A DNA stretch of 64,000 nucleotides, from the NCBI GenBank assembly GCA_965205605.1, contig CBDBHE010000007.1, forward strand, positions 83,479 through 147,478. Reading direction: 5' to 3'. A model generated the notes under the pieces. It did no database searches. It was not told where the DNA came from and saw only the letters and a list, made by a program, of their open reading frames with translations. Source of the stretch: Spirochaetota bacterium. Its GTDB lineage: Bacteria; Spirochaetota; UBA12135; COTS27; CBDBHE01. The position numbers and the translations under genes are program-made. Below, in pieces: positions 3,401 to 62,659 of the stretch (its first letter is position 1; every line of letters starts with the position of its first letter).

Positions 3401-6094
3401 ATGTTTTATAAGAGTTTTTTGCTAAAAGGTCTATTTTTATGTTTATTGTTGCTAATAGTAGTACCAACTTTGCAGGGGCAAACGGATGCAGAAAAGAAAA
3501 AATCGGTAGATTACATTCGCTCTATGATGTTGCAGGGCTTATATTATAACGCGGAACCTAAAGCAGAAGTGTTAGGGTTAGGTCAAACAAAAGTTATTGT
3601 AAACGAAAAATCAAGAGCGATATATAACGGAAAAAACTTACAAAATATGGATTTAAATAGCGTCCATGCCTTTTTTGCCTCTGGTACCTACAAAAATATC
3701 AACAAGGACAATATTGTTGATTACCAACACAAATTGGTTGTATTAGCTTTTATTTACCATGGAATAGAAAAATTTTACTTACCACGATTTAAATTTAAAA
3801 ATGTAGAATCTGCTAAGAAACGCAAAGGTAATAAGGATGTACGCAAGCTTATTTTAGAGGGCATAAAGCTTATTTTATCCGAAAAACATCGACCTGGGCA
3901 TGCCTACCATGTGACATATTCTTATCACTACTATCCGAAATACACGACGACTACGATAAGTGCGGTGGCAACTTTATTGTTTGATGAATTCAACAAAAAG
4001 AATGACAATATGGATTTAATAGAAAAAAAAGAATTTGCTGAAGTGTTTAAGAAAATTAAAGATTACTGTAGAATTTTAGGATATGGGGGGGTGCAAATTA
4101 CAGGTGCTAACTGGGCTATTCGAGGCAGCTTTAATGCCCTTTTATATCTATCAGCTGTTAGCCAAGTGGAAGAAATGGAAGCCTTTATGAAGCAGCACGA
4201 TATTTCTATGAGGCGTTTAAATGATGAGGGCGTTACCTACGATTATGGTTTTTTTCATCACACTTATTGTAACTACTGGGGCAAATATGGTATTCATTAT
4301 TTTAAGTTAACCGCTGATTTAGCCATGCTATTGGAGGCCACACCGTGGAAATTTTCCACGTGGAAAAAACGTTTTTTGCGCAATTGCTTGTTAGATGGGT
4401 TTGGACCCCTGGTTTATCGAGGCAATATACTTGCCCTTGAAGGTGGCAAGGCTTCGCTGACGGGAGGCATTACTAAAGCTTACAGTTCACAATACTTAAA
4501 ACCCGTTGAAAAATTAATAAAATTGTGGGGCATTGATGAGTTTGGTGGCTCACGTAAAGACGAAGTACTGGCCTACATCAACAATTTTGATAGTAGTGCT
4601 GACCACAAGCCAGAAGATAGTAAATTAATCGAATCAGAAAACCACAAAGTATATTGGTATAGTGCTAAACAAGTACATCGACGCAAAAACTATGCTGTAC
4701 TAGTCGGTAGGCTTAATAAATGGGTTGGTTCACCTGAACGCGAACAAAGGGTACAACCCGATTTATCTTTTGCTACATCTTCTTACTATGCTTTTGGCTA
4801 CACATCATTTTTAACCAAAGGACCAGAGCATACCCATGCCAGAGCCGCTTGGGATTTTACCACACTTCCAGGTACTACTGTGGCAATTGGTATGCGTGGT
4901 ATTTATAAACTCAAACAAAATATAGAAACAAAGGTGCCATATTCTGGCGGCGTTTCCGATGGCATGTATGGGGTGGGTGGTTTTATTTGTGATGCTGGAA
5001 ATAAGGGAAATAATAGGCGGCATCCCGTTGTGTCTACCAAAGGCAATTTCTTTTTTGATGACGAAATAGTGATGTTAGGACAAAGTATTTCGCGCAAGTA
5101 TGATGTTTTTGAACCTTACCCAAGCCCACCCTGGAGCGATAATTCGGATAATCCTGTGTGGACTACCATCGACCAAACTGATGCTCGTACTTCGCTCACT
5201 TACAACTTAGGCGATAACTCTGCTACAAAAGTCATTCCTAAAATTTCCAATTCCGATCAAGGTACTTCTCTTAAAATAAAAACCAAAGGGGATGTGGCAT
5301 GGTTTCACCACGATGACAAAGGCTACCTTATTTTAGGAAAAAACAAAGCTATTGTGTTAGAGATGAAAAATTTTCCGGTGTACGAAGCTAGATTTTCCCT
5401 TGGTTCGTACACAGGCGCTCTTGTCGCATTGGGTGATCAAACACCTCCTCGGAAATTAAAAAATTTAGGTCGTTCTATTAAAAAAAAATTAATAAAAAAA
5501 TATGGCAGAAAAAAATTAAACGGATTTGCTACTATAAATAGCCCCGAGTTGAAAGTAATAAGGCAACTTCCCTTGATACGTCTTGCCATTGATCACGGCA
5601 AAAAACCTAAAAACGAGTCTTATGACTATGTGTTGCTACCCAATGTAACCGCTAAACAAGTTGAAAATTACGCAAAAAATTTGCCTTTTAACATTATTAT
5701 CAATAAAAAGGGTATTCAAGCAGTCGTGCATAAAAATCTTAATATGGCTCAAGTACTCTTTTATAAAAATGGCGGCAATATTAAATTTAAGCTTGGTGGT
5801 AAAAATATCGAATTAAAAGCTTCTACATACTCTGCTATTTTGCTAGCACGTGATAAAAATAATGAAAAAGCATATCGTATTTCAGTCTCCGAACCCACTT
5901 ATTTGGCAAGCTCTTTGAAAGTAACCATCAAAGGATTGGCCTTTTCTTTAGATACCAAAAAAACCAAAAAAAAAGCTGCTATAGCTACAAAAGTAAAAGG
6001 GAATGACAAAAGCCAAATGACTTCCATAAGTTTTAAACTTTCAAAGAAAAACATAACCGATAAAAGCATAACTGCTCATCTCATTTTGTTGTGA
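3401..6094 (+). CDS. secreted polysaccharide lyase, family 8-like (hyaluronate/chondroitin AC/xanthan lyase family)
   Basis: N-terminal Sec signal peptide (MFYKSFLLKGLFLCLLLLIVVPTLQG). Contains PL8-type blocks: an aromatic catalytic region (YDYGFFHHTYCNYWGKYG), a W..LPGTT block (AWDFTTLPGTTVAIG) and a C-terminal YDYVLLPNV block comparable to ..GYMLIPNV.. of hyaluronate lyases. GC content is clearly above the genomic background. It is a paralogue of 22356-24908 and 51518-53971. Confidence 0.6.
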   Translation: MFYKSFLLKGLFLCLLLLIVVPTLQGQTDAEKKKSVDYIRSMMLQGLYYNAEPKAEVLGLGQTKVIVNEKSRAIYNGKNLQNMDLNSVHAFFASGTYKNINKDNIVDYQHKLVVLAFIYHGIEKFYLPRFKFKNVESAKKRKGNKDVRKLILEGIKLILSEKHRPGHAYHVTYSYHYYPKYTTTTISAVATLLFDEFNKKNDNMDLIEKKEFAEVFKKIKDYCRILGYGGVQITGANWAIRGSFNALLYLSAVSQVEEMEAFMKQHDISMRRLNDEGVTYDYGFFHHTYCNYWGKYGIHYFKLTADLAMLLEATPWKFSTWKKRFLRNCLLDGFGPLVYRGNILALEGGKASLTGGITKAYSSQYLKPVEKLIKLWGIDEFGGSRKDEVLAYINNFDSSADHKPEDSKLIESENHKVYWYSAKQVHRRKNYAVLVGRLNKWVGSPEREQRVQPDLSFATSSYYAFGYTSFLTKGPEHTHARAAWDFTTLPGTTVAIGMRGIYKLKQNIETKVPYSGGVSDGMYGVGGFICDAGNKGNNRRHPVVSTKGNFFFDDEIVMLGQSISRKYDVFEPYPSPPWSDNSDNPVWTTIDQTDARTSLTYNLGDNSATKVIPKISNSDQGTSLKIKTKGDVAWFHHDDKGYLILGKNKAIVLEMKNFPVYEARFSLGSYTGALVALGDQTPPRKLKNLGRSIKKKLIKKYGRKKLNGFATINSPELKVIRQLPLIRLAIDHGKKPKNESYDYVLLPNVTAKQVENYAKNLPFNIIINKKGIQAVVHKNLNMAQVLFYKNGGNIKFKLGGKNIELKASTYSAILLARDKNNEKAYRISVSEPTYLASSLKVTIKGLAFSLDTKKTKKKAAIATKVKGNDKSQMTSISFKLSKKNITDKSITAHLILL

Positions 6095-7508: not shown

Positions 7509-7615
7509 TTGATACCCAAAAAATTTAGAAAAAATTAAAATATTTTTTAGATGATTTCATCACTAATAATTAGCTTTTAAAAAAAATATTTTTAGATTAA
7601 AATATAACTTAATTC

Positions 7616-7645: not shown

Positions 7646-7685
7646 AAAATACTGTTAACAACATTCTAGCAAAAAATTATTTTTT

Positions 7686-9263: not shown

Positions 9264-9271
9264 CTTTTTTT

Positions 9272-12318: not shown

Positions 12319-12320
12319 GG

Positions 12321-13469: not shown

Positions 13470-13478
13470 ATTGAAACC

Positions 13479-14543: not shown

Positions 14544-14564
14544 AGAGTGAAAAAAAAATAAAGG

Positions 14565-15722: not shown

Positions 15723-15816
15723 TTGTAAAAAAAATCTATATTTTTTTAAAAAAAATTAACTAATTCATTATATCATCAAGAAACTTTTATTTTTAAAGAC
15801 TCTCTAAAAAAACACC

Positions 15817-22355: not shown

Positions 22356-24908
22356 ATGAATTTTAATCGTAGAAATTTTTTAAAAACAACTACTATCAGT
22401 AGTGGTCTTTTATTATTACCATTTAGTTTAGAAAAAAAATTATGGGGACTGGAGTCTTCGGGGTCTTTACTTAAAGACAAACAAGCCTTTTTGGATAAGT
22501 TAAGACTTGGGTTTTCAAAAACTGGCTATCGAAAAAATACTGATGAAGGATTGGAAGTGAAGGCTCTTGTAAAGGAAGGCCTTAAATCTCTTAATAAAAA
22601 AATCAGCGAACAGGGGACATTAATAGAAAAACCAATCAATTTAAAAAACATCCCAACGTATTGTAGGTATGCTTGGGCCCTTGCTATATTATCAAAAGGA
22701 AAAAATGAGAGTGATGGAGAGATTTATGGGGTAATAAAGAAAAAGATGTATCGTATGGCTATAATCATTCATAGGGTAGAAGTAACAAAGCCCAATAGTT
22801 ATAAACGTTTTCATTTTTCGTGTTTTGCCATACCGAATACTTTTGTTAATGTGTATTTTTATAATTTTAAAGATATGGTTGGAGTAGAGAAAGGGACCAT
22901 AAAAGACCCCTTAATCGTAAAAGGACACGACGTAATTGTCGAACTAGCAAAGCAGGCTTGGACACAACCGTATAGGAATGATGAAACTGATAAAAATCCA
23001 TTCCAAATTGCTCGTTTTAAAGGGCATGTTTGGTGGGTAACGGCTAATGCTATCACTTATAGGCCTGTCTATCCAGTTGCAGTTGCTTTAAATTCTATTG
23101 TTGGTATTGATGTATTGGTGGAGGTCTGTAATAGAGCCATTGATTTTCTTTACCCAGGAAACAAAAAAGACCCATTTTGGGAGGAAGGGTTTACCTCTGA
23201 TGGTCTTGGATGGGGACATGGCACTCAAAATTATACATTTGGTTACCCTGCACAAGGGGTTCAGGCACTACTTGACATGAAAAAAAATTTCCTCAATTCA
23301 CCTTGGGATAAAGGAAGTCGTGAACAAACTAGAACTAATGTGAAAATATTTTACGTACTCAAAGCTTTTGTACGTGGATCTCAGTGGATGAGGTACAAGG
23401 GTTTCATACACCCAGTAACAGGACGTAATTGTAAACAATATGTTGAGCCAAAAGCTAGAGATGCTTCTAAAAGTAAATTTGTTGGTATACTTAAAAATAT
23501 ATTAAATCATTTTGTAGATTATCTCCCTTCGGTTATTAAAGATAAACAAAAATTTGGAGTGTATGAAAAAGAAATATTAGATTTAAAAAAAGAAATGAAA
23601 AGTAAAACAGGTGTTTTTATGGATGATTATAAAGGTGTTTATACAGGAACAAAATATTTTTGGTGCAATGACCTGATGATTCGTAAAAGTAGAAATTTTT
23701 ACTGTACCATTAATATGGCTTCATCAAGAGTGAGTGGTATTGAGTTTGGGTCTGATGATAAAAATCAAAATGATATGTATCATTATCATTCTGCAGCTGG
23801 TTCGACTTTTTTTTCTAAGGAAGGTTATGAAGCCTGCCATGCTCTTGGGGGCCATAATCTTACTGCTTTACCAGGGGTGACGGCTAAACGTGGGGAAAAT
23901 AGTGACATTTTTAGTATCACTACTTGGAAGGGTTTTAATAGTTTCCACAACTTTTGTGGTGGCACAGGGTTACGTGGGCGTAATGCATGTTGTGGTTTTA
24001 TCCAAGAGTTTAATACAAGGAATGAAAAAATTAAAAGCCTACCTAAGGTTGTAATGGGGGTGTATGTGAAGAAAGGTTATTTTATTTTTGATGACATGAT
24101 GCTTGCTTTAGGGACTGGCATTAAATTAACCTCATCTGGATCTAACAAATTCCCGATATGCACAACGGTCGAAACTGCTTATTTTGAAAACCCAATAACC
24201 GTTACAGAAAATGGGAAATCAAAAACTTACGATACAACAAAAAAAAATAACGTTAATTTTGTTTTAAAGAAAAGTAAAACAGATGCCCTCAATTGGATCG
24301 AGCAAGAAAATAAATTTGCGTATGCTCCCCTCAGTAAACATAACAAGAGTGCTGTAGAGGTGGAAATTGGTGATCGAAAAACGATTTGGAACAGACAAAG
24401 TTATCCAAATCAGAAGAAAAAAAACTTACCTAAAAATATGAACGTTCTTGATATTCGTATTAATCACGGCAAGAGCCCATTTAAGGGCGGATATGCGTAT
24501 TTAGTCTATATGGGTGATAAAAAAGCTTCTCAGTCATTTAAAACATCCCCTATACAAGTCATTTCTAATAGCAGTAAAGTACAAGCGGCTTTGTATTCTA
24601 ATGGAAAAAATAGTCAAGTGGTACAGGCTGTTTTTTATAAAAGTTCTACTTTAGAAATCACAAAAGATTTTAAAATAAAAGCTACTATGCCATGTATTTT
24701 TACGTTTGAAGAGGAAAATGGTAGTGTGAAAGTGACTTTGTGTGATCCCCTATTCGATGTTTCTTTAAAGTCTATAAAAATTTCAATAACAAAGCCAATT
24801 GAAGGCAAAGCGGTTAAGAAGAAAAAAAAATGGTATGAAATCAACCTAAAGAGTGCTAGAAAGCCTTATGTAGGTCGACCAGTGAGTGCAAATTTCAAAT
24901 TAGTTTAG
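22356..24908 (+). CDS. polysaccharide lyase family 8-like protein with a twin-arginine (Tat) signal peptide
   Basis: The N-terminus MNFNRRNFLKTTTISSGLLLLPFS matches the Tat motif RRxFLK. PL8-type blocks are present: DGLGWGHGTQNYTFGYP, LTALPGVTAKRGE and a C-terminal AYLVYMGD. GC is above background. Confidence 0.55.
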   Translation: MNFNRRNFLKTTTISSGLLLLPFSLEKKLWGLESSGSLLKDKQAFLDKLRLGFSKTGYRKNTDEGLEVKALVKEGLKSLNKKISEQGTLIEKPINLKNIPTYCRYAWALAILSKGKNESDGEIYGVIKKKMYRMAIIIHRVEVTKPNSYKRFHFSCFAIPNTFVNVYFYNFKDMVGVEKGTIKDPLIVKGHDVIVELAKQAWTQPYRNDETDKNPFQIARFKGHVWWVTANAITYRPVYPVAVALNSIVGIDVLVEVCNRAIDFLYPGNKKDPFWEEGFTSDGLGWGHGTQNYTFGYPAQGVQALLDMKKNFLNSPWDKGSREQTRTNVKIFYVLKAFVRGSQWMRYKGFIHPVTGRNCKQYVEPKARDASKSKFVGILKNILNHFVDYLPSVIKDKQKFGVYEKEILDLKKEMKSKTGVFMDDYKGVYTGTKYFWCNDLMIRKSRNFYCTINMASSRVSGIEFGSDDKNQNDMYHYHSAAGSTFFSKEGYEACHALGGHNLTALPGVTAKRGENSDIFSITTWKGFNSFHNFCGGTGLRGRNACCGFIQEFNTRNEKIKSLPKVVMGVYVKKGYFIFDDMMLALGTGIKLTSSGSNKFPICTTVETAYFENPITVTENGKSKTYDTTKKNNVNFVLKKSKTDALNWIEQENKFAYAPLSKHNKSAVEVEIGDRKTIWNRQSYPNQKKKNLPKNMNVLDIRINHGKSPFKGGYAYLVYMGDKKASQSFKTSPIQVISNSSKVQAALYSNGKNSQVVQAVFYKSSTLEITKDFKIKATMPCIFTFEEENGSVKVTLCDPLFDVSLKSIKISITKPIEGKAVKKKKKWYEINLKSARKPYVGRPVSANFKLV

Positions 24909-32494: not shown

Positions 32495-32567
32495 GCTGGC
32501 TTAGCTCAATTGGTAGAGCAGCTGATTTGTAATCAGCAGGTTGCGGGTTCAACTCCCGTGGCCAGCT
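32495..32567 (+). tRNA. tRNA-Thr (anticodon UGU)
   Basis: The sequence GCTGGCTTAGCTCAATTGGTAGAGCAGCTGATTTGTAATCAGCAGGTTGCGGGTTCAACTCCCGTGGCCAGCT folds as a cloverleaf. Anticodon loop TTTGTAA. CCA is not encoded. Confidence 0.85.
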
Positions 32568-49200: not shown

Positions 49201-49330
49201 AATTTTTTAAAAAAATTTAATAACCCATCAATAACTCCTTAATGACTATTTTAGGGCAACTTGGATTTTAACTATTTACTTTAAGCTTGTTGTTTATTTA
49301 TAATGGGGTATAATTATAATATTACGTTAA

Positions 49331-49500
49331 AGATTTATGATTTAATACTTTATATTTTCTAAAATTAAAGCAGAATCTATTGTTAGGTATAAATATTTAT
49401 TTTATTAGATCAAATAACCCTAAAGGAAATCCATATGATATTTAAATGTTTATTAGTCTTAATAGCGATGCAGTTAAATGACTTGTTTTCTTATGAAGCT
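49331..49500. repeat. duplicated 5' module, copy A: upstream block plus signal-peptide coding region of gene 49435-51408
   Basis: agatttatgatttaatactttatattttctaaaattaaagcagaatctattgttaggtataaata followed by ATGATATTTAAATGTTTATTAGTCTTAATAGCGATGCAGTTAAATGACTTGTTTTCTTATGAA. It is near-identical to 51456-51583. Confidence 0.75.
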
Positions 49501-51408
49501 GATACTAAATCCAACACCTCTCAAACAAAAAAACTATACAAAAAATCCTTACCCATTAAAACTAAAATCCTATCCATTAACAAACCTATCTCTTTTACTG
49601 AAGAAGTAACAGATAATTTCCATATTGTCTATAATAAAAATAAAAAACACGCACTCTATGATCACAATATAAAAATAGAAGAGGAGGCTCTTTTAACACC
49701 ATTTACAAAAAAAAAAAAAATGAAACCCTTATTTTTGTATTATAAAAAAGGATATCTAGCTAATAATGCGATTGTCTCTATCTATATTCATAAAATTAAA
49801 ACTAAATCAACTCTAGGAGGCAAAAATGGATTAATATTAGGGGACGCTTCTATCAGTGTGAAAACAAGCGAGACTCTATCTTCAGTAAGCATAAGACATA
49901 TTAAAAATAAAAAGGAAAATTACATTTTTTATTTTCCTGGGATACCTAAAGATACTAAAGATGGATTAGCACTCTCAGCCAAAATGTCCTCAAACGATAC
50001 ACTACAATGGTTCTTAACTTATAATTCATTTTCTTATAGAGGAGAATGTTTATTAAAGCAAACTTCTAAATACTACCCCATTGGTCTCTATCTAACACCC
50101 TCTAAACATCCACAGGAGATAAGTTCTTTTACTATTCGAAAGCTACTACAATCAAAGGAATTAAAAGCTAAATATGCCTTTAAAGAATTAACACATAAAT
50201 ATAACCCAAAATTCCATCCCCAGTATCAAAGCAGTCAATTAAAGTACGATCGTAACCACCCTGCTACAAAATACCTCGTGCTTAAATCCATACAAGGGCC
50301 TTTACACAAAGAAGAGATCGCAGGTTTAGAGAATTATTTATTAAACTATGGCAAACCCACTATTAACTGGCTAAATTATTATTTTAGAAGGACTTATATG
50401 CCCTATATGTTGGAATGGGTATGGGAAAAAAAGAATAACCAAAAATTAATCAACCAATCTATCCAAATGGCACAAAGTGTCATTGCCCATAGAAGTGATA
50501 AACTTGGGGACGAAGGTATTTATACTATAGGTCAGGTCCCTGTATGGCCCCATTACAGGGGTGTACAATTCTTAAAAGGAAAGATGACCTTGAGTTCTGG
50601 TTTCGCATCATTTGGTTCTGCTCTTTCATGGATAACTGTCCCTTCTAAACTAATTGCAAATAATAAAAACCTATGGGATCAAACAACAAGTATAAATAAC
50701 AAAAACTATAAACAAATAGCCTATGAGTTAATTGATGAAGCAATGGTGACTATTGATTTTACTTTAAAACACTATCTCGAAAAGAAAACAAAACTCTTAA
50801 AATCCCCTGCATGGGGAGCAGAACCTGAAGGTTGGGTTCCTCAGTGGAATCGTTCACTTCCTTTTATAACGGCCTTAATACCTCTCATTGATGCGATGAA
50901 AGCTTTTAAAATCCACCCTAAAAAAATAGTATTATTAGAAGAAATTGTAAAAAGATACATTTCGTATTTTTTATCCTATGTCAAGTACTACGATCACAAT
51001 GGAAAAACCGTACTCAACTATCCATATGGAGACTACCGTACTGTGAATAATCCAGAACAATCTGAAGACATCGGTCATGCCGGTTTTGATGGGCGTCAGC
51101 TTCAGATGATCTACAAAGCGAAAAGATATAGCTTAAAGGAAAAATTTCCAAAAGCCTATGCTAACACACTGGCAGATATCGTGTGTAAAGGAAATGGTGT
51201 CTTTAAAAAACGTTTAAAAGGAGACAGAACCTTTGCTTTTACCTATTTTGCAGGATTAGAAGGGCTTATCTGGCTTGCTCACTGGCGTCCTGAGCTCTAC
51301 GAGCACGTCATTGAATACACCTATAACAAAGTTCTCAAAAAGAGGCTCGATTCCAGGTTTGTCTGGGAAGTCCTTAAATTAAAAGAACAAAAACAGCAAA
51401 AAAAATAA
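49435..51408 (+). CDS. secreted hypothetical protein sharing its promoter and signal-peptide module with the PL8 lyase gene downstream; possibly a polysaccharide-lyase-associated alpha-helical protein
   Basis: Signal peptide MIFKCLLVLIAMQLNDLFSY. Length 657 aa. GC above background. No catalytic block confidently recognised. Contains a 14-A tract at 49707-49720. Confidence 0.5.
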   Translation: MIFKCLLVLIAMQLNDLFSYEADTKSNTSQTKKLYKKSLPIKTKILSINKPISFTEEVTDNFHIVYNKNKKHALYDHNIKIEEEALLTPFTKKKKMKPLFLYYKKGYLANNAIVSIYIHKIKTKSTLGGKNGLILGDASISVKTSETLSSVSIRHIKNKKENYIFYFPGIPKDTKDGLALSAKMSSNDTLQWFLTYNSFSYRGECLLKQTSKYYPIGLYLTPSKHPQEISSFTIRKLLQSKELKAKYAFKELTHKYNPKFHPQYQSSQLKYDRNHPATKYLVLKSIQGPLHKEEIAGLENYLLNYGKPTINWLNYYFRRTYMPYMLEWVWEKKNNQKLINQSIQMAQSVIAHRSDKLGDEGIYTIGQVPVWPHYRGVQFLKGKMTLSSGFASFGSALSWITVPSKLIANNKNLWDQTTSINNKNYKQIAYELIDEAMVTIDFTLKHYLEKKTKLLKSPAWGAEPEGWVPQWNRSLPFITALIPLIDAMKAFKIHPKKIVLLEEIVKRYISYFLSYVKYYDHNGKTVLNYPYGDYRTVNNPEQSEDIGHAGFDGRQLQMIYKAKRYSLKEKFPKAYANTLADIVCKGNGVFKKRLKGDRTFAFTYFAGLEGLIWLAHWRPELYEHVIEYTYNKVLKKRLDSRFVWEVLKLKEQKQQKK

Positions 51409-51455
51409 GACCCATTCAATCCTAAAAATTGGGATTCAGAAAGAATTAGTTTCGT

Positions 51456-51583
51456 AGATTTATGATTTAATATTTTATATTTTCTAAAATTAGAGTAACA
51501 TCTATTGTTAGATATAAATGATGTTTAAATACTTATTAGTCATATTAGTCATGCAGTTAACTGTCTTGTTTTCTTATGATAAA
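51456..51583. repeat. duplicated 5' module, copy B: upstream block plus signal-peptide coding region of gene 51518-53971
   Basis: agatttatgatttaatattttatattttctaaaattagagtaacatctattgttagatataaat followed by gATGATGTTTAAATACTTATTAGTCATATTAGTCATGCAGTTAACTGTCTTGTTTTCTTATGAT. Confidence 0.75.
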
Positions 51584-53971
51584 TTTCAACTTTTATTAGA
51601 CACTCCAGTTGATGCTGCAGTTTTTGATTTAGACAGAGCTGGTAGTCGGGATCTAATCAAAGAAAAACAAAAGAATCCAAATTATAAGGCCGTTTTTGAT
51701 AAAAAATCTCTACCTGATATGAAATGGGTTAAAAAAATGATGATTAAGTTGGATAAAGTTAAATCATTAAGACAAAGTCTACCCAAAGTTAAAGTTGATT
51801 TAAAAACAATAAAACATAGAAAATTACCTTATCCTGATAAAGCAGAAGCAGAAAAATATTTAGTTCATTGTAGTTTTCTTAATGATTTAATCTCTCTTTG
51901 TAGGGTAGTACGGTTAAAAGAAGAACTAAAAAATGATAAAGCCTTATCTAAAAAAGTGATTGATTTGATTTTTAAAAATTTGAATTTCTATATGGTAGAA
52001 TTTGCACCAGATAGGCCTTATTGGAGAGTGACGATGCGTTTTAGCAATTATAAAGCTACACGTTTAGCATCCCCCGTTCTTGCTCTTTTAGACAGGATAG
52101 TGCTTCTGCTCCATCCTTATACCACTAAAAAGACGTTAGAGGCTAATCAACGTAAATTTGTTTGTTTAAATGTATTGAATTACACAGACCACCTTATAAA
52201 TAATTCAGTTGGTGCTCAAAATAGAGGTGTGAACTGGATGGCAAGATTAAACCATATAAATACCCATTTTTTTACTAAACATCTCTATGGCTTTACTGGG
52301 GCATTAAAAGAGTTAAAGGAGCATTTAGCTGATGGATATGAATATGCTCCTTTTCAAAGAAGAATGGGGACTTTACCAGATGGTGGATTTTGGCATCATG
52401 GATCTCAAGCGTATTGTGTTCCCTATGGAACTGGAGACTTCAATCATGCTGTTTATTATCTTAAAAATTTTGAAAAGACACCGCTTGAACTAGATCGTAT
52501 TCATTATGCAGTCTATGAAACTCAATTGTTAGATAAATGGCAATATATTATTTACAATAAAGAATGGCTAGATCTATCAATAACAGGTGGAAAAAACGTA
52601 GCTCAAATTAAACGTTACAAAGCGAAAGTCTACCCTCGGACACTAAGTAAGATGGTCTCTAATATTATGAAACTTGATAAAAGCAAACTAACACGTTTAA
52701 AGGAATTGAAAGAGCTAAGTAAGAAAATAAAAAATAAAGAGTTTGAAAGTAAGCTTATAATTAATAAAAATTTTTGGCATTGGGAATATATGGTACATCG
52801 TCGACCTGGTTGGTATATTGGTTTCAAAGGGATGTCGTCAAGGACAATCACTGCTGAATGGGATCAAAACGCCCATCTTACTAGTGGTCATACTGCGATA
52901 ATGAGAAAAGGAGATGAATATTGGAGAATTCGACCGGCTCTTAATTGGACTGCGTTACCAGGTATAACTACAGAACAACTTCCTTCTAAATATTTACTAA
53001 ATCGCTTCGTAGCGACAACGGGTCAATCAGATTTTGCTAATGGAGTTAGTGATGGGAAGTATGGTTTATTTGCATTTGAGCACAAACCAAAAGATAAGGT
53101 TATAGGAACCGTTCATGCTAATAAAGCAGGCTTCTTCTTTGAAAAGGGGATGGTTGCATTGACTTCAGGCATAAACCGACATAATCGTGGGTGGGGAAAT
53201 GATGTTTGGACTACACTTGACCAACGTATACGTCGAGGGGTAGTTACAGCTTTTATCAATGGTAATATAATTGTTTTTGAAGATCAGGAGTTTAATAAAT
53301 CATTTGATGTACGTGGATTTGCATGGGTACACCATGATGGCATTACTTATTTTTTGCCTGAAAATCAAAATCGAAAGATCATAATAAAAAGTGATAGAAA
53401 GCAAGGGGAAGTCAAAGACGTATTACCTCATAACAAAAAAGGTCTTACTTATGACCAAACTGTTTTTTTGGTAACCGTTAATCATGAAAAGCAGGTAATA
53501 AATGATAAATGTTCATATATGGTCATTCCAAATATGAGCTTAGATGAAGTTAAAAAAATTACTAGTTTTCCATTTTATAAAATTATTAAAAATGATATAA
53601 AGCAACAAGCTGTTATTGATGAAAATCAAGGTATTTCACAGTTGGTTTTTTATAGTTGGGGAGAGATTAAAATCCCAAATGGTTTAATAGTATCCTCTGA
53701 ACATCCATTAATCTTAATGTTACGGAAGGACTTAAAAAAGATTTCTGCAGTGGTAGCGAATCCTTTACAGCTTAAGAAACATATGGATTTTTCTCTACAT
53801 AAAAACAAATCTGCAATTAGCTTTTTTATAAGTGGTAAATTATTATCAAAAAATAAGAAGGCTATTTGTACTTATGATAAAAAATTAAATAAAACAAAAG
53901 TGTCCGTTTTATTTAATAAAGCTGCTGGATATGAGGGGGATTCTGTCACGGCAGAGCTTTTAGTTAAATGA
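51518..53971 (+). CDS. secreted polysaccharide lyase, family 8 (hyaluronate/chondroitin AC/xanthan lyase-like)
   Basis: Signal peptide present. DGGFWHHGSQAYCVPYGTGDFN matches the FW.RDGSYIDHTNVAYTGAYGN catalytic His/Tyr block of hyaluronate lyases. ..RPGWYIGFKGMSSR.. matches ..RGWYTSDGM... ..NWTALPGITTEQLP.. matches ..VNPYKMPGTTETD... C-terminal ..SYMVIPNMSLDEV.. matches ..GYMLIPNVDRATF... GC above background. Confidence 0.7.
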   Translation: MMFKYLLVILVMQLTVLFSYDKFQLLLDTPVDAAVFDLDRAGSRDLIKEKQKNPNYKAVFDKKSLPDMKWVKKMMIKLDKVKSLRQSLPKVKVDLKTIKHRKLPYPDKAEAEKYLVHCSFLNDLISLCRVVRLKEELKNDKALSKKVIDLIFKNLNFYMVEFAPDRPYWRVTMRFSNYKATRLASPVLALLDRIVLLLHPYTTKKTLEANQRKFVCLNVLNYTDHLINNSVGAQNRGVNWMARLNHINTHFFTKHLYGFTGALKELKEHLADGYEYAPFQRRMGTLPDGGFWHHGSQAYCVPYGTGDFNHAVYYLKNFEKTPLELDRIHYAVYETQLLDKWQYIIYNKEWLDLSITGGKNVAQIKRYKAKVYPRTLSKMVSNIMKLDKSKLTRLKELKELSKKIKNKEFESKLIINKNFWHWEYMVHRRPGWYIGFKGMSSRTITAEWDQNAHLTSGHTAIMRKGDEYWRIRPALNWTALPGITTEQLPSKYLLNRFVATTGQSDFANGVSDGKYGLFAFEHKPKDKVIGTVHANKAGFFFEKGMVALTSGINRHNRGWGNDVWTTLDQRIRRGVVTAFINGNIIVFEDQEFNKSFDVRGFAWVHHDGITYFLPENQNRKIIIKSDRKQGEVKDVLPHNKKGLTYDQTVFLVTVNHEKQVINDKCSYMVIPNMSLDEVKKITSFPFYKIIKNDIKQQAVIDENQGISQLVFYSWGEIKIPNGLIVSSEHPLILMLRKDLKKISAVVANPLQLKKHMDFSLHKNKSAISFFISGKLLSKNKKAICTYDKKLNKTKVSVLFNKAAGYEGDSVTAELLVK

Positions 53972-54202
53972 AAAAACTAAAAAATGGTGCAGGCCTGTGG
54001 GATACGGGTAATTATTATTATTATTTATTGTAAAGGAAGGATAAAAAAAAAGTCTTCTTTTGAGGGCGTGCTGGAGATAAATTAGATTTTGATAAAAATC
54101 GATTCATCGTTCTTTAAAAATAAAAAAATTAGTTGTATAATTAACCCTATTAATAATGATATAAAGAATTATTTAAAAGAAAAGAAACAAGGAGATGAAA
54201 TT

Positions 54203-55381
54203 ATGAAAAACAAACAATTAATTTGTTGCACTTTGTTGAGTATTTTGATGTTTGGTAATCTGCTCGCAAAGAAGGCATTTTCAGACCAGAAACCAGAATA
54301 TTTTGGTGACCCCAATTTTATTTTTGACGAATCCAAGTATGATGAAAATTATCCTGACATGAAAGAGTGGGCGAAAGCAGGTGTTAAGGGAGGGATCCCT
54401 TACAGGGGGACGCTTCCGATTATTGCACGCATTACTACAAAAGATAATATTCAAAAAGCTATTGATCAAGCCAATCCTACTAAACCGTCAGTAATTCTAC
54501 TCGCAAATGGGATCTACACAATCACTAATTCTGTGAAAATGAAGTCTAAGATCATCTTACAGGGCACAGATAAAAACAAAACAATCATCAATGTGAACAT
54601 GCGCCAAAAGTGGAAAGGATGGGGCAGAAAAAAAATCGGTATTTACTTTCGTAAGGTCAATTATGCTGGATTGGAAAACCTGACTGTACGTTTTGACTCC
54701 GGTGGAATTGAACCTGTAGATAACAAAAATTATTCAGACAAATGGCGCAAGGGTATGATGAATAATGATGTAAAAAGAGATGACTTTTATGTGGCGCTTG
54801 TAAAATTCAGGGAAGCTACAAACTGTTGGGTGGATGATTGTATGTTGCTTAATTCTGGTACCGACCCAGTAATTACTTCAGGTAACGACATGCACCTTAC
54901 TTTCCGAAATAACTTTGTGGATCGTGCACACAATAAAGGCGCAGGAGGTAATGGCTATTTTACCATGCGTGGACAGTATACATTAATATGTGGCAATACT
55001 ATCAAGCGTCTACGTCATTTTGCTATTGAAGTAGGTGCTAAATATTGCGTGGTAGTAAACAATAAATTTGAAGTGGATGTAAACTTTCACCAAAGAGACA
55101 AGGGTCACAATTTGGTGGAAGGCAATAGTATACGCATCCCTGAATGGCACCGACACGCTGCCACCCATAGCGGCTGGGCGGTATTTGCAGCAGGTGGTTC
55201 TATTCACGGTGCTACAGGTCCAGGTAACCGTATGTTTAACAATACCAGCGATCTACGTAATTCTGGCCCTAGATTTGCAAATCCGGACACAGTCTATAAA
55301 ACCCAAGGAAAATCAATCAGAGTCCACAGCACTACACCACCAAAACATGGCACTCTTTATGCTGTAAAGCTTGACTTTTAA
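54203..55381 (+). CDS. secreted right-handed beta-helix (pectate-lyase fold) protein, putative polysaccharide lyase or glycosidase
   Basis: The ORF is open from 54089, but ATG 54203 has the SD aaggagatgaaatt upstream and is followed by the signal peptide MKNKQLICCTLLSILMFGNLLA. Repetitive ..N.G.D..I..GN..H-type segments appear. GC is roughly 40-45% by eye, the highest in the window. The protein ends in ..KLDF. Confidence 0.5.
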   Translation: MKNKQLICCTLLSILMFGNLLAKKAFSDQKPEYFGDPNFIFDESKYDENYPDMKEWAKAGVKGGIPYRGTLPIIARITTKDNIQKAIDQANPTKPSVILLANGIYTITNSVKMKSKIILQGTDKNKTIINVNMRQKWKGWGRKKIGIYFRKVNYAGLENLTVRFDSGGIEPVDNKNYSDKWRKGMMNNDVKRDDFYVALVKFREATNCWVDDCMLLNSGTDPVITSGNDMHLTFRNNFVDRAHNKGAGGNGYFTMRGQYTLICGNTIKRLRHFAIEVGAKYCVVVNNKFEVDVNFHQRDKGHNLVEGNSIRIPEWHRHAATHSGWAVFAAGGSIHGATGPGNRMFNNTSDLRNSGPRFANPDTVYKTQGKSIRVHSTTPPKHGTLYAVKLDF

Positions 55382-56361
55382 CTAATTAGCACGAAAAATC
55401 GTTTCCTAAATTAGTATGTAGAACTTAGGTACTAGATTTTCTTTTAGGATTTCAATAAGTAGTGTAAATGAATAGAAGATTTTTTACAAAATCGACCAAG
55501 ATAAAATTGTACTAAATACTGATTAATGTGTATACTTGCTAAAAAAGCACCCCATTTTCAATATTTATGATTTTTAAGAGAACAACTTTAGTTAAATTGA
55601 TAGAAGTAATTCGAAATTACCCAATTTTAATTTTATCTTTTTATCATTCAGCTCAAATTACAATCATATCGCTCTGGGGACTGCGATACCACTGGCACAT
55701 ACATTGAGAATGTTTAATTTTAAAGGTTTTATTTCATTTAAAAAGATGATGAATCAAAAATTATAAATGGCTCTTCTTTGCTATACTGATTGCGTTTATT
55801 TTTGCAACACCAAATGCTGTTTTGGAGTATAAGAAATTTTGGTCTGGTTTCTACTGGAACTACACAATAGCTCCAATCTGGGGTGGACAATTAGGTGATA
55901 TAACTTAATTACAAAAACTACCTATTACTTTAAACAGCAAGATGATTTTTCAAAAATGGGCTAAACTTAATCTTAAGCCTAGCACATTGATCTATAAGAG
56001 TCCTTTAATATACTTTGCCAATAAGTAATGTCACTAAAAGATTAACCATATAAATTAAATATGCCGTACTTTGGTGGAAGAGCAAGAAATCAGTTAAAAT
56101 AGGCTAAAGAAAATAATAATAAATACAGAGATGGAAAGAAAAAAGATACTAATTAATGGGAGTTATACTACTAAAGCTCTTTCAAGGAGTAAACCCTGAC
56201 ATCATTTCTTCAGCTCATTATAATCGTTTTTTAGGTGTTAAAAGAGGGTATCTTAAAGTAAAAGACAATTCAAAAATTGAAGCATCATATTAATATTGTG
56301 CATTTTCACATAGAGTTTAGGCCGTGTAAAGAAAGCGAATTGGAAAAGGAAAAAACATGGT

Positions 56362-56434
56362 TGGGTGAGGACAGAATCGAACTGCCGACATCTACCTTGT
56401 AAGGGTAGCGCTCTACCAATTGAGCTACTCACCC
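56362..56434 (-). tRNA. tRNA-Val (anticodon UAC)
   Basis: Reverse complement GGGTGAGTAGCTCAATTGGTAGAGCGCTACCCTTACAAGGTAGATGTCGGCAGTTCGATTCTGTCCTCACCCA folds as a cloverleaf. Anticodon loop CTTACAA. CCA not encoded. Confidence 0.85.
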
Positions 56435-56670
56435 AAGATTTTGTTAAATAGTGCTATCATATAATGAAAAGACTCAATGAGTCAAACTTTTTTCAAAAAA
56501 TAATTTCTTATCATTTTTTTATCTTTTAAAACAAAAAACATACTTCAATTTTTAAAAAAATCTTATAAGATAAGAAAAGCAAAGCAAAATGTTCCAAATA
56601 AAAAAAAATTCTTTAAAACCAAAGTTGTATCAAATAACAAAAAAAAGTTATAATTTTTTTTAAAAATTCA

Positions 56671-60238: not shown

Positions 60239-62659
60239 TTAGAGGGTATATATCTTCATATTAACTTCAAGCTCTTTTGGATAAGAACCATCTTCATTTT
60301 GAAATTTCCTGTATTTTGCTTCTAAAGAAGATAAACTTCTTGATGCTTGATGATGATGTCGACTAACCAGCCTTTCAAAAGCAGGTAAATTAGCAAGCTT
60401 TTTTCTAATAGATTTGCTAAAAGGTAAGTGTCTAAAAAAGAGATCTCTTACAACAGTATCTAATTTCATCACCCCTTGACTTTCGTACTTAATCCATAAA
60501 GAATAATAAAATCCAAAAATTCGCTTATTATCTTTACGATTAGAGGTAATGATTTTTTTAATTTTTTCTTTTGCTCCTGTCGATAATTTAGAGTTTTTCT
60601 TATAAGTAGTAATATAATTATAAAAAGCACCCGTAATGCCTCCATCAATAGGATCCGACCAAGAAAGACCTTTGACTGTACAACAAATCTCCCACCGATA
60701 TTCTCCCAAAGCTTTAATAAACGCTTTTTCTAAATCCCCTGTAAAAAACAAAGGAATCAAAAAACGTGCTCTAGTTTGTTTATTAGTCCCACTAATGTCT
60801 TGCCAAAAAAAGACTTTATCTCCTATTACTGGTAAAATAACTACATAAGGGAAGACCTCCATTTGAATAATGGTATTGGCTTTTTTTGAAAGCCGGTAAA
60901 GAGTTTCCCTATAAAAAAGGCTATAATCTCTTTCAATAATGGATTGAAAGATTTTATCAATTTTTTGTTTTTGAATCATAATTTCTTTAAAATCATGTGG
61001 CTTGTTAAGCTCTGTCATAAAAAAAAGTGCTCTAGGAGGAGATTCATTAACAATTTTAAGAGCAACTGAAATCATATTATCCATTTCATATTTAACAATG
61101 GCTTTTTTTATATCTTCCTCGCTTAAACCTTCTTCTATTTTTCTTTGTTTAGAAGACTTTCGCTTTTCTTTTTCTAAAAGAAATTTTTGATAAGTCACTC
61201 CAAGCTCTGTATTAGAAGGGATTTCCTCTCCATTATAAATATTTTTAAGCCAATCAAATAAAGAAATAAAAATCAATTGACTCTCCACTTCTTCAGAATA
61301 ACTTTCTAAAAAATTTTTTGCTTCTGCATCCACTAGATCTTTACTGATAAAACTAAAATTCAAAAACAACAAAAAATCTTTATTTTTTTTTATTGGTAAT
61401 TCTTTTTGAAAAAGATGGGTGCTTACCTTAATATAAAGATTGACATAATTTTCATTTATTTTCTTAATCACAATACGTTCTTTATCATTGGCATCTTGAA
61501 GATTTTTTATCTGTCCCAAAGCTTTATAGCTAGTGCTTAATTCTTTTAGGAATTCTGGTTCTAAAAAATCAGCCTCTTTAATAGAAGGCAGCATTGCCGC
61601 ACTTAATTGCACTTCTTTTTTTCTTTTTAATGGCCTGCCTATTTCTTCACTGTCTTCTGCCCCTTCTCCTTTATAGATTTTTTCTAAGGAAGAAGTAAGT
61701 AGAAAACTAATTTTTTTAAAATCAAATAATTTTTCAATCGAATCTTTTATTTCTGAAAAAGCCATCAAAAAATCCTCTTTAAGCATATTTAAACTTTCTG
61801 ATATTTCTTGATTCCAATTAATTTTTTTGTTAATACTTAAAGAAACTGTTTTAGCCAAAATGGATTCTTCTCCTTCAACAAGAGCTAAGATTTCTGTATA
61901 AATTCTCTTTACTTTCTTTTCTATATTAAGAAAATAATAATGAATCTCACTACCGAGTACTTCATAAATTTTACTCAAAATATGTAAATGTTGTTTGGAA
62001 AGTTGCTTTAAAAACCGATCTTCTTTTTCAAAAAAATCATTAATAAAAATCGTTTCTTTTTTAGAAAAATCTTCTTTTTCAAAAAAAGGAGTAAAGTTCA
62101 TTGTAAAAGCTTTTCCTTCAGTAAAGCTAATATTTTCATCTGCAACTTTTTCAATGAATTGCTCCATGATTTTTTGATAACCGACATTCTTTTCAAAGCT
62201 TATACCACAAATAGAAATATGAAGAAGAAATTTTCTATTAAGTTCAAAAATATTGTCATAAAAAGTCTTTAATTTTTGATACAGATCTTTATATTCTTTT
62301 AAAGATTGCTCCATTTGCCTTAAGACTTTAATTCCTAAGTCAATATTATGATAAAAAAAAGTTTGACTATTTTTAATCGGATAAATAGAAATCGACCCTT
62401 TTCTCTCTGAAAAAATATTTGGAAAAACAAGGCTTTTGGTGCAAAGAGAAAGTCCGCCTAAAAAATCATTGGTACTTAAAGTTTTAATTTTAAAAAAAAC
62501 ACGACCTCCTTCAAGTTTTTTATCCGGATAAGAAATAACGCTAACAACACCACTATTAAGTCTAATAAAATAAGAACCTCGACTATTTTCATCTAAAAGA
62601 AGCTCCCCTTCTTTAAAAACAACTTGTTCTTGAAAAACATTTAATTTTTTTAAAGACAC
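60239..62659 (-). CDS. large hypothetical cytoplasmic protein (806 aa) with an N-terminal cyclic-nucleotide-binding-like domain
   Basis: N-terminal ..EQVVFKEGELLLDENSRGSYFIRLNSGVVSV.. resembles cNMP-binding/CAP beta-roll motifs. The rest is unassigned. Confidence 0.5.
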   Translation of the reverse strand: MSLKKLNVFQEQVVFKEGELLLDENSRGSYFIRLNSGVVSVISYPDKKLEGGRVFFKIKTLSTNDFLGGLSLCTKSLVFPNIFSERKGSISIYPIKNSQTFFYHNIDLGIKVLRQMEQSLKEYKDLYQKLKTFYDNIFELNRKFLLHISICGISFEKNVGYQKIMEQFIEKVADENISFTEGKAFTMNFTPFFEKEDFSKKETIFINDFFEKEDRFLKQLSKQHLHILSKIYEVLGSEIHYYFLNIEKKVKRIYTEILALVEGEESILAKTVSLSINKKINWNQEISESLNMLKEDFLMAFSEIKDSIEKLFDFKKISFLLTSSLEKIYKGEGAEDSEEIGRPLKRKKEVQLSAAMLPSIKEADFLEPEFLKELSTSYKALGQIKNLQDANDKERIVIKKINENYVNLYIKVSTHLFQKELPIKKNKDFLLFLNFSFISKDLVDAEAKNFLESYSEEVESQLIFISLFDWLKNIYNGEEIPSNTELGVTYQKFLLEKEKRKSSKQRKIEEGLSEEDIKKAIVKYEMDNMISVALKIVNESPPRALFFMTELNKPHDFKEIMIQKQKIDKIFQSIIERDYSLFYRETLYRLSKKANTIIQMEVFPYVVILPVIGDKVFFWQDISGTNKQTRARFLIPLFFTGDLEKAFIKALGEYRWEICCTVKGLSWSDPIDGGITGAFYNYITTYKKNSKLSTGAKEKIKKIITSNRKDNKRIFGFYYSLWIKYESQGVMKLDTVVRDLFFRHLPFSKSIRKKLANLPAFERLVSRHHHQASRSLSSLEAKYRKFQNEDGSYPKELEVNMKIYTL

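Follow-up and report, generated by a model that had tools for sequence, protein, structure and literature searches.

The best solved relative of the polysaccharide lyase described here is the chondroitinase AC of Pedobacter heparinus (CAZy PL8; PDB 1CB8, 1HM2). For its genomic setting, the chondroitin/GAG-type loci of Alteromonadales (Paraglaciecola sp. L3A3, CP047023.1; Colwellia sp. UCD-KL20, MPHL01000004.1) come close, in which a PL8 gene of the chondroitinase-ABC type (Lyase_N + Lyase_catalyt) is accompanied by DUF1961, GH88, KduI, KduD and transporters, and in Paraglaciecola, not in Colwellia, by a sulfatase. The closest named PL8 homologs lie in Bacteroidota PULs (Tamlana sp. 2201CG12-4; a SusC/D locus), amid SusC/SusD, sulfatases, GH29 and GH95 fucosidases, PL6, GH88 and a hybrid two-component regulator.

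Here we analysed a block of three adjoining plus-strand open reading frames within a 64-kb stretch of DNA, hereafter the window (Table 1). A preliminary description had presented it as a higher-GC island of secreted polysaccharide-lyase genes inserted against the 3’ end of a tRNA-Val. The three reading frames, the PL8 motifs, the beta-helix, the 976-bp ORF-free stretch and the tRNA-Val(tac) were each found as described, and the claim of an apparently secreted, polysaccharide-degrading cluster around a real PL8 lyase is supported. The block is probably a cluster of three genes whose products are exported and degrade polysaccharides, set within a wider, dispersed repertoire of PL8 lyases in an AT-rich and phylogenetically isolated host. 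As such, it would be a fairly ordinary carbohydrate-degradation cluster, parts of which look foreign. The bacterium may, as the preliminary description suggested, lead a host-associated life.

Table 1. Features of the three-gene block and related loci, in window coordinates
Feature	Position	Strand	Description
Second PL8 lyase gene	3401..6094	+	897 aa, Sec-type signal; outside the three-gene block
Third PL8 lyase gene	22356..24908	+	850 aa, twin-arginine-type N-terminus (RRNFLK); outside the three-gene block
5’ module copy 1, upstream part	49331..49394	+	64 nt; 91% identical to 51456-51519
5’ module copy 1, coding part	49435..49496	+	First 21 codons of gene 1 (MIFKCLLVLIAMQLNDLFSYE); 85% identical to 51518-51579
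Gene 1	49435..51408	+	657 aa; lectin-like beta-sandwich and (alpha/alpha)6 barrel; uncharacterised CAZyme-like family
5’ module copy 2	51456..51579	+	62 nt upstream and first 21 codons of the PL8 gene (MMFKYLLVILVMQLTVLFSYD)
PL8-family polysaccharide lyase	51518..53971	+	817 aa; Lyase_8 and Lyase_8_C
Gene 3	54203..55381	+	392 aa; apparently secreted right-handed parallel beta-helix, unclassified family
Gene-free stretch	55382..56357		976 bp; without credible gene or known RNA
tRNA-Val (anticodon TAC)	56358..56435	-	ARAGORN; Rfam tRNA 73.3 bits

The PL8 lyase and its two neighbours

The middle gene belongs to PL8, as had been proposed from its motifs. Pfam Lyase_8 matches the protein at 8.9e-48 (163 bits, cut-off 27) and Lyase_8_C at 2.1e-9 (38 bits, cut-off 22), and all the motif blocks quoted earlier are present (FWHHGSQAYCVPY at residues 291-303, WTALPGIT at 477-484, YMVIPN at 667-672). 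The gene is intact, aligning over its full length to its homologs and free of frameshifts; a database entry for its product begins at the second Met and thus counts 816 aa. Candidate catalytic residues are encoded at 52397-52399 (His294), 52424-52426 (Tyr303) and 52856-52858 (Glu447). As a single sequence, the protein is matched by PDB 1CB8/1HM2 at 3.7e-35, and in a profile search 1CB8 (6e-45) is followed by a mannuronate-specific PL8 as second-best PDB relative (2e-18) and by xanthan lyases (1e-13). Homologs at 39-46% identity occur in marine Bacteroidota, and the subfamily appears, from the sequences collected, to be small, uncharacterised and found mostly in that group. The enzyme would be exported and would act as a beta-eliminating lyase on a polymer that contains uronic acid, with His294 and Tyr303 working as a pair together with Glu447; this polymer most probably resembles chondroitin or hyaluronan, or is a marine analogue.

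All three proteins of the block have signal-like N-termini, with a basic start followed by a hydrophobic stretch of 10-17 residues and a 12-residue Kyte-Doolittle maximum of 2.6-2.8. The N-termini of gene 1 and gene 3 (residues 2-19 and 2-27) are modelled by AF2 as helix, and Sec signal peptides are plausible on all three proteins.

Gene 1 has no sequence match in Pfam, NCBIfam or PDB. Its AF2 model (pLDDT 83.5; barrel >95) consists of the signal-like N-terminal helix, a low-confidence linker, a lectin-like beta-sandwich at about residues 60-240 and an (alpha/alpha)6 barrel at about 270-657. HMMER retrieved 97 relatives, 24 of them below 1e-30, among which fusions to CBM32, fn3, T9SS tails, FGE-sulfatase or GH88 occur, and one homolog elsewhere neighbours DUF1961, two sulfatases and a transporter.

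Gene 3 encodes a beta-helix, in agreement with the preliminary description (AF2 pLDDT 96). Sequence models for this fold are less decisive: its PF12708 score of 22.4 bits falls below the cut-off of 27, but 17 of 55 family members do match PF12708 and 8 match PF13229. A profile match links it to the N-terminal region of AlgE6 (3e-7). With the ATG at 54203, the N-terminal length agrees with that of the homologs; a longer, TTG-start version of the reading frame begins at 54089. The nearest relatives are marine Alteromonadales proteins (Paraglaciecola, Colwellia; 54-59% identity), and in Paraglaciecola sp. L3A3 and Colwellia sp. UCD-KL20, whose loci hold two copies each, the family adjoins the chondroitinase-ABC-type PL8, DUF1961, GH88 and KduI/KduD. 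Both accessory families are thus associated elsewhere with PL8, sulfatase and GH88 loci, and the modelled folds are typical of carbohydrate-active proteins.

Do these two proteins take part in the lyase pathway at all? They could instead be merely co-located, with gene 3 encoding a beta-helix adhesin or surface protein and gene 1 a lectin-type binder. A legume-lectin-like domain is indeed present in gene 1, neither protein significantly matches a characterised catalytic family, and the gene 3 homolog of Vibrio coralliilyticus lies in CAZyme-free surroundings. We nonetheless regard this as very improbable: gene 3 homologs repeatedly stand beside PL8, GH88 and KduI/KduD, with a sulfatase in the Paraglaciecola locus and in that of Tenacibaculum, where the homolog lies within a SusC/D and sulfatase locus. 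Furthermore, in relatives of gene 1 a CBM32 is present as a binding module in its own right, implying a catalytic role for the conserved barrel, and polar residues of that barrel are nearly invariant in the family (E294, R353, N472, Y531, E544, H548, D552). The products of gene 1 and gene 3 would then work on the same polymer as the PL8 enzyme, or on its fragments, as accessory depolymerases or trimming enzymes.

Composition, dispersed lyases and a duplicated 5’ module

No 6-kb stretch of the window is richer in GC than the block, which in part bears out its description as higher in GC; the difference is small (0.338 vs 0.305), and the 25-30% given for the background was slightly low. Measured against a GC3 background of 0.226 +/- 0.030 (36 genes, from 64 kb of the genome only), the expected departure in codon usage was found for two of the three genes: gene 3 (GC 0.399; GC3 0.364, z=4.6; codon-usage z=-3.9) and gene 1 (GC3 0.298, z=2.4; codon-usage z=-2.4) are atypical, whereas the PL8 gene (GC3 0.233, z=0.24) is indistinguishable from the host. 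This departure makes it plausible that gene 3 and gene 1 came from elsewhere. A horizontal origin of the PL8 gene, on the other hand, is not demonstrated, given its host-like composition and its place as the subfamily's most divergent member, with 39-45% identity to all the others.

It may be asked whether the cluster is simply ancestral and vertically inherited, with amino-acid content, expression level or local mutation bias behind the differences in composition. The native-like GC3 and codon usage of the PL8 gene, and its position as an outlier nested in no donor clade, are consistent with this, as is the placement of gene 3 as sister to the Alteromonadales clade and not inside it. Higher GC3 could also stem from selection or expression level instead of transfer. 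However, the GC3 of gene 3 lies 4.6 SD above the background and agrees with the values of its Paraglaciecola homologs (GC 0.39-0.40; GC3 0.29-0.34), and its identity to gammaproteobacterial proteins, 59% to a Paraglaciecola protein, exceeds anything seen for the host DnaE, which reaches at most 45% anywhere in the collections. Neither collection searched contained close relatives of the host. Overall, vertical inheritance of the whole cluster seems unlikely.

Two further PL8 genes, very divergent and passed over in the preliminary description, are present in the same 64 kb. The second (Lyase_8 3e-26, Lyase_8_C 4e-9, Lyase_8_N 2e-6) is 24% identical to the PL8 of the block and matches xanthan lyase and chondroitinase AC in the PDB at about 1e-17; the third (Lyase_8 4e-33, Lyase_8_C 1.5e-8) is 21-23% identical to the other two and matches 1CB8 at 3e-9. 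Both sit singly amid housekeeping genes and away from tRNAs, and therefore the lyase of the block is part of a dispersed repertoire and not a single insertion. Three PL8 genes this divergent suggest a long-standing lifestyle trait, which would fit vertical inheritance. At the same time, the second PL8 gene is the other compositional outlier of the window (GC3 0.326, codon-usage z=-3.1), and thus secreted CAZymes are the atypical class here, which speaks against it.

A 5’ module of about 125 nt, made up of upstream DNA and signal-peptide codons, is common to gene 1 and the PL8 gene, a duplication far beyond chance: a 37-mer of it has two matches in the window against none expected from shuffles. 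This sharing had gone unremarked in the preliminary description. A 40-nt segment carrying a ribosome-binding-like site (AAAGGAAA; 49395-49434, counted as 42 gap columns by MAFFT) is peculiar to copy 1 and absent from copy 2, and no third copy occurs in the 64-kb window. The module is host-like in composition, a point in favour of vertical inheritance.

Our preferred reading, held with moderate confidence, is that of a polysaccharide-degradation cluster acquired piecemeal and domesticated within the dispersed lyase repertoire. As to direction and timing, we infer that marine bacteria that degrade polysaccharides were the source of the genes, in the case of gene 3 a gammaproteobacterium-like donor with a GC of roughly 38-40%, and that the host-like 5’ module was copied to the front of gene 1 and of the PL8 gene afterwards. 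The subfamily of the PL8 gene is otherwise found mostly in Bacteroidota.

The tRNA-Val and the gene-free stretch

The 3’ end of the tRNA-Val points toward the block, as had been noted, with the tRNA on the minus strand at 976 bp from the last gene. A classic integrase-mediated island inserted at this 3’ end, with the gene-free stretch as its decayed integrase or att end, would account for that geometry, for the atypical composition of genes 1 and 3, and for the block being the GC-richest 6 kb. The stretch itself has a GC of 0.291 compared to 0.174 in a true spacer (56436-56670), and it may be decayed coding DNA. The composition fits this part of the earlier description, but no gene remnant was detected: the longest stop-to-stop frame has 56 codons, frames of at least 30 codons gave no Pfam match at E<=10, integrase or recombinase included, and there was no Rfam match apart from the adjoining tRNA, nor any tblastx, blastn or plasmid match.

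The insertion itself is not supported. No word of at least 11 nt from the 3’ half of the tRNA recurs elsewhere in the 64 kb, so that the anticipated direct repeat was not found, and an inverted repeat around gene 3, with 28 of 40 positions matching, does no better than chance (28-30 in simulated sequences). Moreover, the PL8 gene is native-like in codon usage, the other PL8 genes of the window lie away from tRNAs, and the nearest taxa differ among the three genes, which argues against one imported unit. The orientation of a tRNA is by itself a 50:50 matter. Overall, we consider an island of this kind quite improbable; on the piecemeal reading, the proximity of the tRNA-Val would be incidental, or the trace of a now-erased event.

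Comparison with characterised enzymes and loci

Like tRNA-associated integrative islands, the block adjoins a tRNA 3’ end and has two of its three genes atypical in composition; unlike them, it is without an att direct repeat, an integrase gene or remnant, or detectable mobility genes, and the apparent origin of its genes is heterogeneous. For gene 1, GH88/GH105 unsaturated uronyl hydrolases and PL35 GAG lyases share the (alpha/alpha)6 fold at a structural identity of only 6-12%, and gene 1 has an additional N-terminal lectin-like domain. No Pfam model matches gene 1, hhalign against GH88 yields a probability of 0.9%, and a genuine GH88 domain is found fused to one relative, implying a distinct function.

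The PL8 of the block has the Lyase_8 super-sandwich and C-terminal beta-sandwich domains of P. heparinus chondroitinase AC, whose His225, Tyr234 and Glu371 align with His294, Tyr303 and Glu447, and the W..LPGIT and Y.V.P blocks are common to both. The match is distant, covering residues 283-762 at low sequence identity. In contrast to chondroitinase AC, Lyase_8_N is undetected in the protein, and the NCBIfam chondroitinase-AC model reaches 152 bits (2.4e-44) against an equivalog cut-off of 1000; the catalytic Arg288 falls in an alignment gap, where the subfamily has an invariant GGK359. As the subfamily is small and uncharacterised, the substrate specificity of chondroitinase AC is not transferable.

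The Bacteroidota PULs hold PL8 homologs at 41-43% identity over at least 90% of the length, but the PL8 of the block has no adjoining SusC/D, sulfatase or regulator. Similarly, the ORF list and Pfam place no sulfatase, GH88, KduI/D, transporter or DUF1961 within the three-gene block, unlike the Alteromonadales loci, from which a gene 1 homolog is in turn absent. Although the PL8 of those loci is only about 21% identical to that of the block, it lies directly beside a member of the gene 3 family, the same arrangement as seen here.

A three-gene cluster centred on a PL8 lyase

Three intact plus-strand genes, here called gene 1, the PL8 gene and gene 3, lie side by side next to tRNA-Val. They form a real cluster that has a PL8 lyase at its centre and codes for carbohydrate-active proteins that are apparently exported. 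The genes are preceded by dxs, adk, a gene for a membrane protein and one for a sigma-70-family factor, the last ending at 49200. Downstream of gene 3, 976 bp without a credible gene separate its stop codon from the 3' end of tRNA-Val (position 56358), which points toward the block and is followed by dnaE. ORF and tRNA calls thus bear out the anatomy given in the preliminary description, namely three ORFs, gene-free DNA and a tRNA-Val facing them.

Features of the window discussed in the text
Feature	Coordinates	Strand	Description
ORF upstream of PL8-a	119-2089	+	656 aa, no Pfam domain
PL8-a (second PL8 gene)	3401-6094	+	897 aa, Sec-type signal; Lyase_8, Lyase_8_C, Lyase_8_N
Surface-polysaccharide biosynthesis cluster	6507-17061		two GT1/GT4 glycosyltransferases, AsnB-type amidotransferase, Wzy/O-antigen-ligase-like protein
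Third PL8 gene	22356-24908	+	850 aa; twin-arginine-type N-terminus MNFNRRNFLK...
Mrr-like ORF	31805-32158	+	117 aa
tRNA-Thr	32495-32567		the window's other tRNA
5' module, gene 1 copy	49331-49394 and 49435-49496		
Gene 1	49435-51408	+	657 aa
5' module, PL8 copy	51456-51519 and 51518-51579		
PL8 gene	51518-53971	+	817 aa
Gene 3	54203-55381	+	392 aa
Gene-free stretch	55382-56357		GC 0.291
tRNA-Val(tac)	56358-56435	-	
Distal large ORF	60239-62659	-	806 aa, no Pfam domain

The product of the PL8 gene matches Lyase_8 (PF02278) over profile positions 1-254 of 254, at 163.4 bits (cut-off 27, 8.9e-48), and Lyase_8_C (PF02884) at 38.1 bits (cut-off 22, 2.1e-9). Its earlier assignment to PL8 is therefore borne out, and of the three domain models proposed for it only Lyase_8_N (PF08124) gave no Pfam match. 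The N-terminal helical region aligns to the product of PL8-a, which does match Lyase_8_N. Since the NCBIfam equivalog models for chondroitinase AC and HylB match far under their cut-offs, the protein is to be regarded as a member of the family, and not as an equivalog of either enzyme. Its nearest solved relative is the chondroitinase AC of Pedobacter heparinus (1CB8/1HM2, 3.7e-35); the phmmer alignment to 1CB8 begins inside the helical domain (query residue 283, chain residue 192) and takes in the catalytic His and Tyr. Counted along this alignment, His294, Tyr303 and Glu447 correspond to His225, Tyr234 and Glu371 of chondroitinase AC, whose catalytic roles are established in the structural literature on that enzyme. 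As a PL8 enzyme, the window protein would be expected to cut by beta-elimination, leaving a 4,5-unsaturated uronate (A232). All three are invariant in an alignment of the PL8 gene product and ten homologs, as is a GAQNRGVNW block. Arg288 of chondroitinase AC falls in a one-residue gap, where the subfamily carries an invariant GGK359 block, and the carboxylate-neutralising Asn is left unaligned, with the invariant N235 and N239 as candidates. A profile of the subfamily matches chondroitinase AC (6e-45), a mannuronate-specific PL8 enzyme (2e-18) and xanthan lyases (1e-13). The window protein has few homologs, all distant (39-46% identity). Those with names belong to marine Bacteroidota such as Tamlana and Puteibacter, and by pairwise identity the window protein is the outlier of its subfamily.

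Two putative accessory proteins of unclassified families

The third gene had been read as encoding a beta-helix protein, and its AlphaFold model (pLDDT 96) is indeed a right-handed parallel beta-helix. Pfam, including the beta-helix and pectate-lyase models suggested for it, gave no match above cut-off: PF12708 reaches 22.4 bits (cut-off 27), and a search of PDB sequences at E<=1 returned nothing. Within an alignment of 55 family members, 17 match PF12708 and eight PF13229, and the alignment as a whole matches AlgE mannuronan epimerases over the N-terminal ~90 residues only (3e-7). As such, gene 3 encodes a beta-helix protein of an unclassified family, with no named beta-helix family above cut-off. 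The database version of the gene starts at a TTG at 54089 (430 aa); we favour the ATG at 54203 as the probable start, since it agrees better with the aligned homologs and with where the signal peptide lies. An inverted repeat around gene 3 (54089-54128 and 55728-55767, 28 of 40 positions) was considered as a boundary of a gene 3 cassette and rejected, because Markov-simulated sequences reach 28-30 of 40.

The nearest relatives of gene 3, at 54-59% identity, come from Paraglaciecola sp. L3A3 and Colwellia sp. UCD-KL20, where they are annotated as "hypothetical proteins". Both genomes hold two copies of the family directly beside chondroitinase-ABC-type PL8 genes, in loci that also contain DUF1961, GH88, KduI and KduD genes and, in Paraglaciecola only, a sulfatase. 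A Tenacibaculum homolog lies inside a SusC/D and sulfatase locus, and a Vibrio homolog lacks surroundings of this kind. The adjacency of a PL8 gene and a gene 3-type beta-helix gene is found in three unrelated genomes, and this recurrence is the strongest indication that both proteins act on one substrate.

Gene 1 might have been taken for an orphan, as a word-indexed search returned only itself. An exhaustive HMMER search, however, yielded 97 relatives, 24 of them below 1e-30 and mainly across residues 270-655, so that gene 1 is not an orphan; neither gene 1 nor any of these relatives matches a Pfam model in the conserved domain. Their additional modules include CBM32 (F5/8 type C), fn3, T9SS tails, chitobiase-C and CBM_X2, and fusions occur to GH88, DUF1961 and an FGE-sulfatase-like domain (single members) and to DUF6250 (two members). 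In the structural model (pLDDT 83.5 overall, above 95 in the C-terminal domain), a signal-like helix and a disordered linker precede a legume-lectin-like beta-sandwich, which is followed by an (alpha/alpha)6 barrel; Foldseek gave no closer structural match. So could gene 1 be an unsaturated uronyl hydrolase of GH88/GH105? The barrel fold is present, but there is no PF07470 match, alignment of the family profile to three GH88 sequences with hhalign gives a probability of 0.9%, and one relative bears a separate GH88 domain; at the sequence level this assignment is rejected. Polar residues of the barrel that are nearly invariant in the family (E294, R353, N472, Y531, E544, H548 and D552) suggest a putative catalytic site. 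We infer that gene 1 encodes a putative accessory enzyme of uronan breakdown.

One gene 1 homolog lies in a locus (L084) with DUF1961, two sulfatases, a sodium:solute symporter and an AraC regulator. DUF1961 (PF09224) recurs both here and beside the PL8 and beta-helix genes of Paraglaciecola (L082, CP047023.1) and Colwellia (L168), sulfatases being present in L082 and L084, and it may be another uncharacterised component of the polysaccharide-degradation guild. Literature searches covering the DUF1961/sulfatase/lyase guild, subfamilies of PL8, PL29, and the beta-helix proteins of GAG loci turned up no name for the gene 1 and gene 3 families.

Composition, shared 5' module and the tRNA-Val junction

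The block had been described as a higher-GC insertion of atypical composition; the atypical composition is seen in two of its three genes. It is the GC-richest 6-kb stretch of the window, at 0.338 against 0.305 (window GC 30.5%), a difference of 3.3 points. Against a GC3 background of 0.226 +/- 0.030, drawn from only 36 window genes, gene 3 (0.364, z=4.6) and gene 1 (0.298, z=2.4) stand out, while the PL8 gene (0.233, z=0.24) does not; leave-one-out codon log-likelihoods give z values of -3.9, -2.4 and -1.2, respectively. Gene 3 resembles its Paraglaciecola homologs in GC and GC3, and by pairwise identity it is sister to a tight Alteromonadales clade. The GC and GC3 of the PL8 gene equal both those of the host and those of its Tamlana homolog.

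A search of 185,579 species genomes and of the metagenome collection with the host DnaE gave no match above 45% identity. The Spirochaetes MAGs UBA12135 and UWPOB_SPIRO2 rank first, followed by CPR/Patescibacteria and Elusimicrobia at 35-41%, and the distant DnaE-bearing genomes have no neighbouring genes in common with the window. The host lineage appears to be deep-branching and AT-rich. Transfer of gene 3 is argued from this contrast, because a gammaproteobacterial relative is 59% identical to its product when the host DnaE finds at most 45% anywhere. We regard a foreign origin as likely for gene 3, plausible for gene 1 and possible for the PL8 gene.

Gene 1 and the PL8 gene have in common a 5' module of ~125 nt, made up of 62-64 nt of upstream DNA and the first 21 codons. 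The two copies are 91% identical in the upstream part and 85% in the coding part, and the chance expectation for such a duplication is zero. The module includes the sequence AGATTTATGATTTAATAYTTTATATTTTCTAAAATTA ... ATGCAGTTAANTGNCTTGTTTTCTTATGA, and its coding part reads MIFKCLLVLIAMQLNDLFSYE in gene 1 and MMFKYLLVILVMQLTVLFSYD in the PL8 gene. Only in the gene 1 copy is there a segment of 40 nt (42 gap columns in the alignment) that contains the ribosome-binding-like AAAGGAAA, and owing to this indel the PL8 copy is without such a site. No third copy was found within the 64-kb window. The module is AT-rich, like the host, and takes the place of the type of signal peptide that PL8 homologs carry. 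We infer that intragenomic recombination duplicated it, giving both genes one leader and export signal. Promoter and terminator scans gave counts the same as the shuffled expectation.

The preliminary description had further proposed that the block is an island inserted at the 3' end of tRNA-Val. The geometry is that of a tRNA-targeted island, with the block next to the 3' end of the tRNA, but neither an att repeat nor an integrase remnant accompanies it. Blastn-short and exact k-mer searches with the 3' half of tRNA-Val gave no match beyond chance: none of its words of at least 11 nt occurs elsewhere in the window, and in 49201-49440, where a repeat had been anticipated, or nearby, the best match to the tRNA 3' end is at chance level. 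The gene-free stretch between gene 3 and the tRNA has no ORF of at least 60 aa (its longest stop-to-stop frame has 56 codons), and nine stop-to-stop fragments from it gave no Pfam match at E<=10, and hence no integrase or pseudogene remnant. Comparison by tblastx with 167 retrieved loci and with the remainder of the window showed no similarity, blastn against 72,556 plasmids matched nothing, and Rfam, at gathering and E<=1 thresholds, returned the tRNA alone and no hidden RNA gene. An integrase/att mechanism is not supported. The GC of the stretch, at 0.291 well above the 0.174 of the adjoining spacer, is compatible with eroded coding DNA, without identifying that DNA.

The window's other tRNA, tRNA-Thr, lies beside a gene-poor stretch (~1.4 kb), which contains an apparently truncated ORF that by eye resembles an Mrr-type restriction protein in its N-terminal region.

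Dispersed PL8 genes and comparison with other loci

Two more PL8 genes lie in the same 64 kb, so the lyase of the block is part of a dispersed repertoire rather than a single isolated import. The three proteins share 21-24% identity with one another (24% between PL8-a and the PL8 gene of the block), and each gene stands single among housekeeping or envelope-biosynthesis genes. PL8-a, closest among PDB entries to xanthan lyase and chondroitinase AC (~1e-17), is the window's other strong codon-usage outlier (GC3 0.326, codon z=-3.1). The third PL8 gene is flanked by an esterase and folE/PTPS on one side and by an Aldedh-like gene and plsX on the other.

Around PL8-a, the surface-polysaccharide biosynthesis cluster adjoins the gene, and just upstream lies one of two large ORFs without Pfam domains (the other being the distal ORF of the table). 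The product of this upstream ORF ends in an outer-membrane-barrel-like C-terminus (...GVQYKF) and could be an unrecognised outer-membrane receptor.

The predicted target of the three-gene cluster is most likely a glycosaminoglycan-like or marine uronic polysaccharide, which it would depolymerise. If so, the locus represents a compact three-enzyme set against a uronic-acid polymer, two of the enzymes coming from families without a characterised member. A broader reading would make genes 1 and 3 two unclassified enzyme families that partner PL8 lyases in attacking glycosaminoglycan-like or marine sulfated uronic polysaccharides. Occurring alongside three divergent PL8 genes in a host that is deep-branching and AT-rich, they would then point to a matrix-degrading, possibly host-associated lifestyle, built by gene capture and a re-used native promoter and signal-peptide cassette. 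Taken as a whole we put this forward tentatively, and consider it rather doubtful. PL8 enzymes and horizontally acquired polysaccharide-degradation genes are both well known, and the tRNA-island mechanism is unsupported, so the overall significance of the locus is modest. Most interesting in it are the pair of uncharacterised accessory families and the 5' cassette that gene 1 and the PL8 gene share. The former turn up repeatedly beside PL8, sulfatase or GH88 genes of marine degraders and make reasonable candidates for new families of carbohydrate-active enzymes, and the latter illustrates how a poorly sampled AT-rich lineage may have fitted captured genes with a common native 5' end.

In Tamlana the homolog of the PL8 gene is surrounded by sulfatases, GH29 and GH95 fucosidases, two PL6 genes, GH88 and a hybrid two-component regulator, and in another genome it comes after SusC/SusD. 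The two closest homologs, which come from one metagenome (sample ERZ21861969; L081 10001-12439 and L085 10001-12421), are 46% and 42% identical to the window protein and 70% to each other, and on their 47%-GC contigs each is a lone PL8 gene among housekeeping genes, the same arrangement as in the window.
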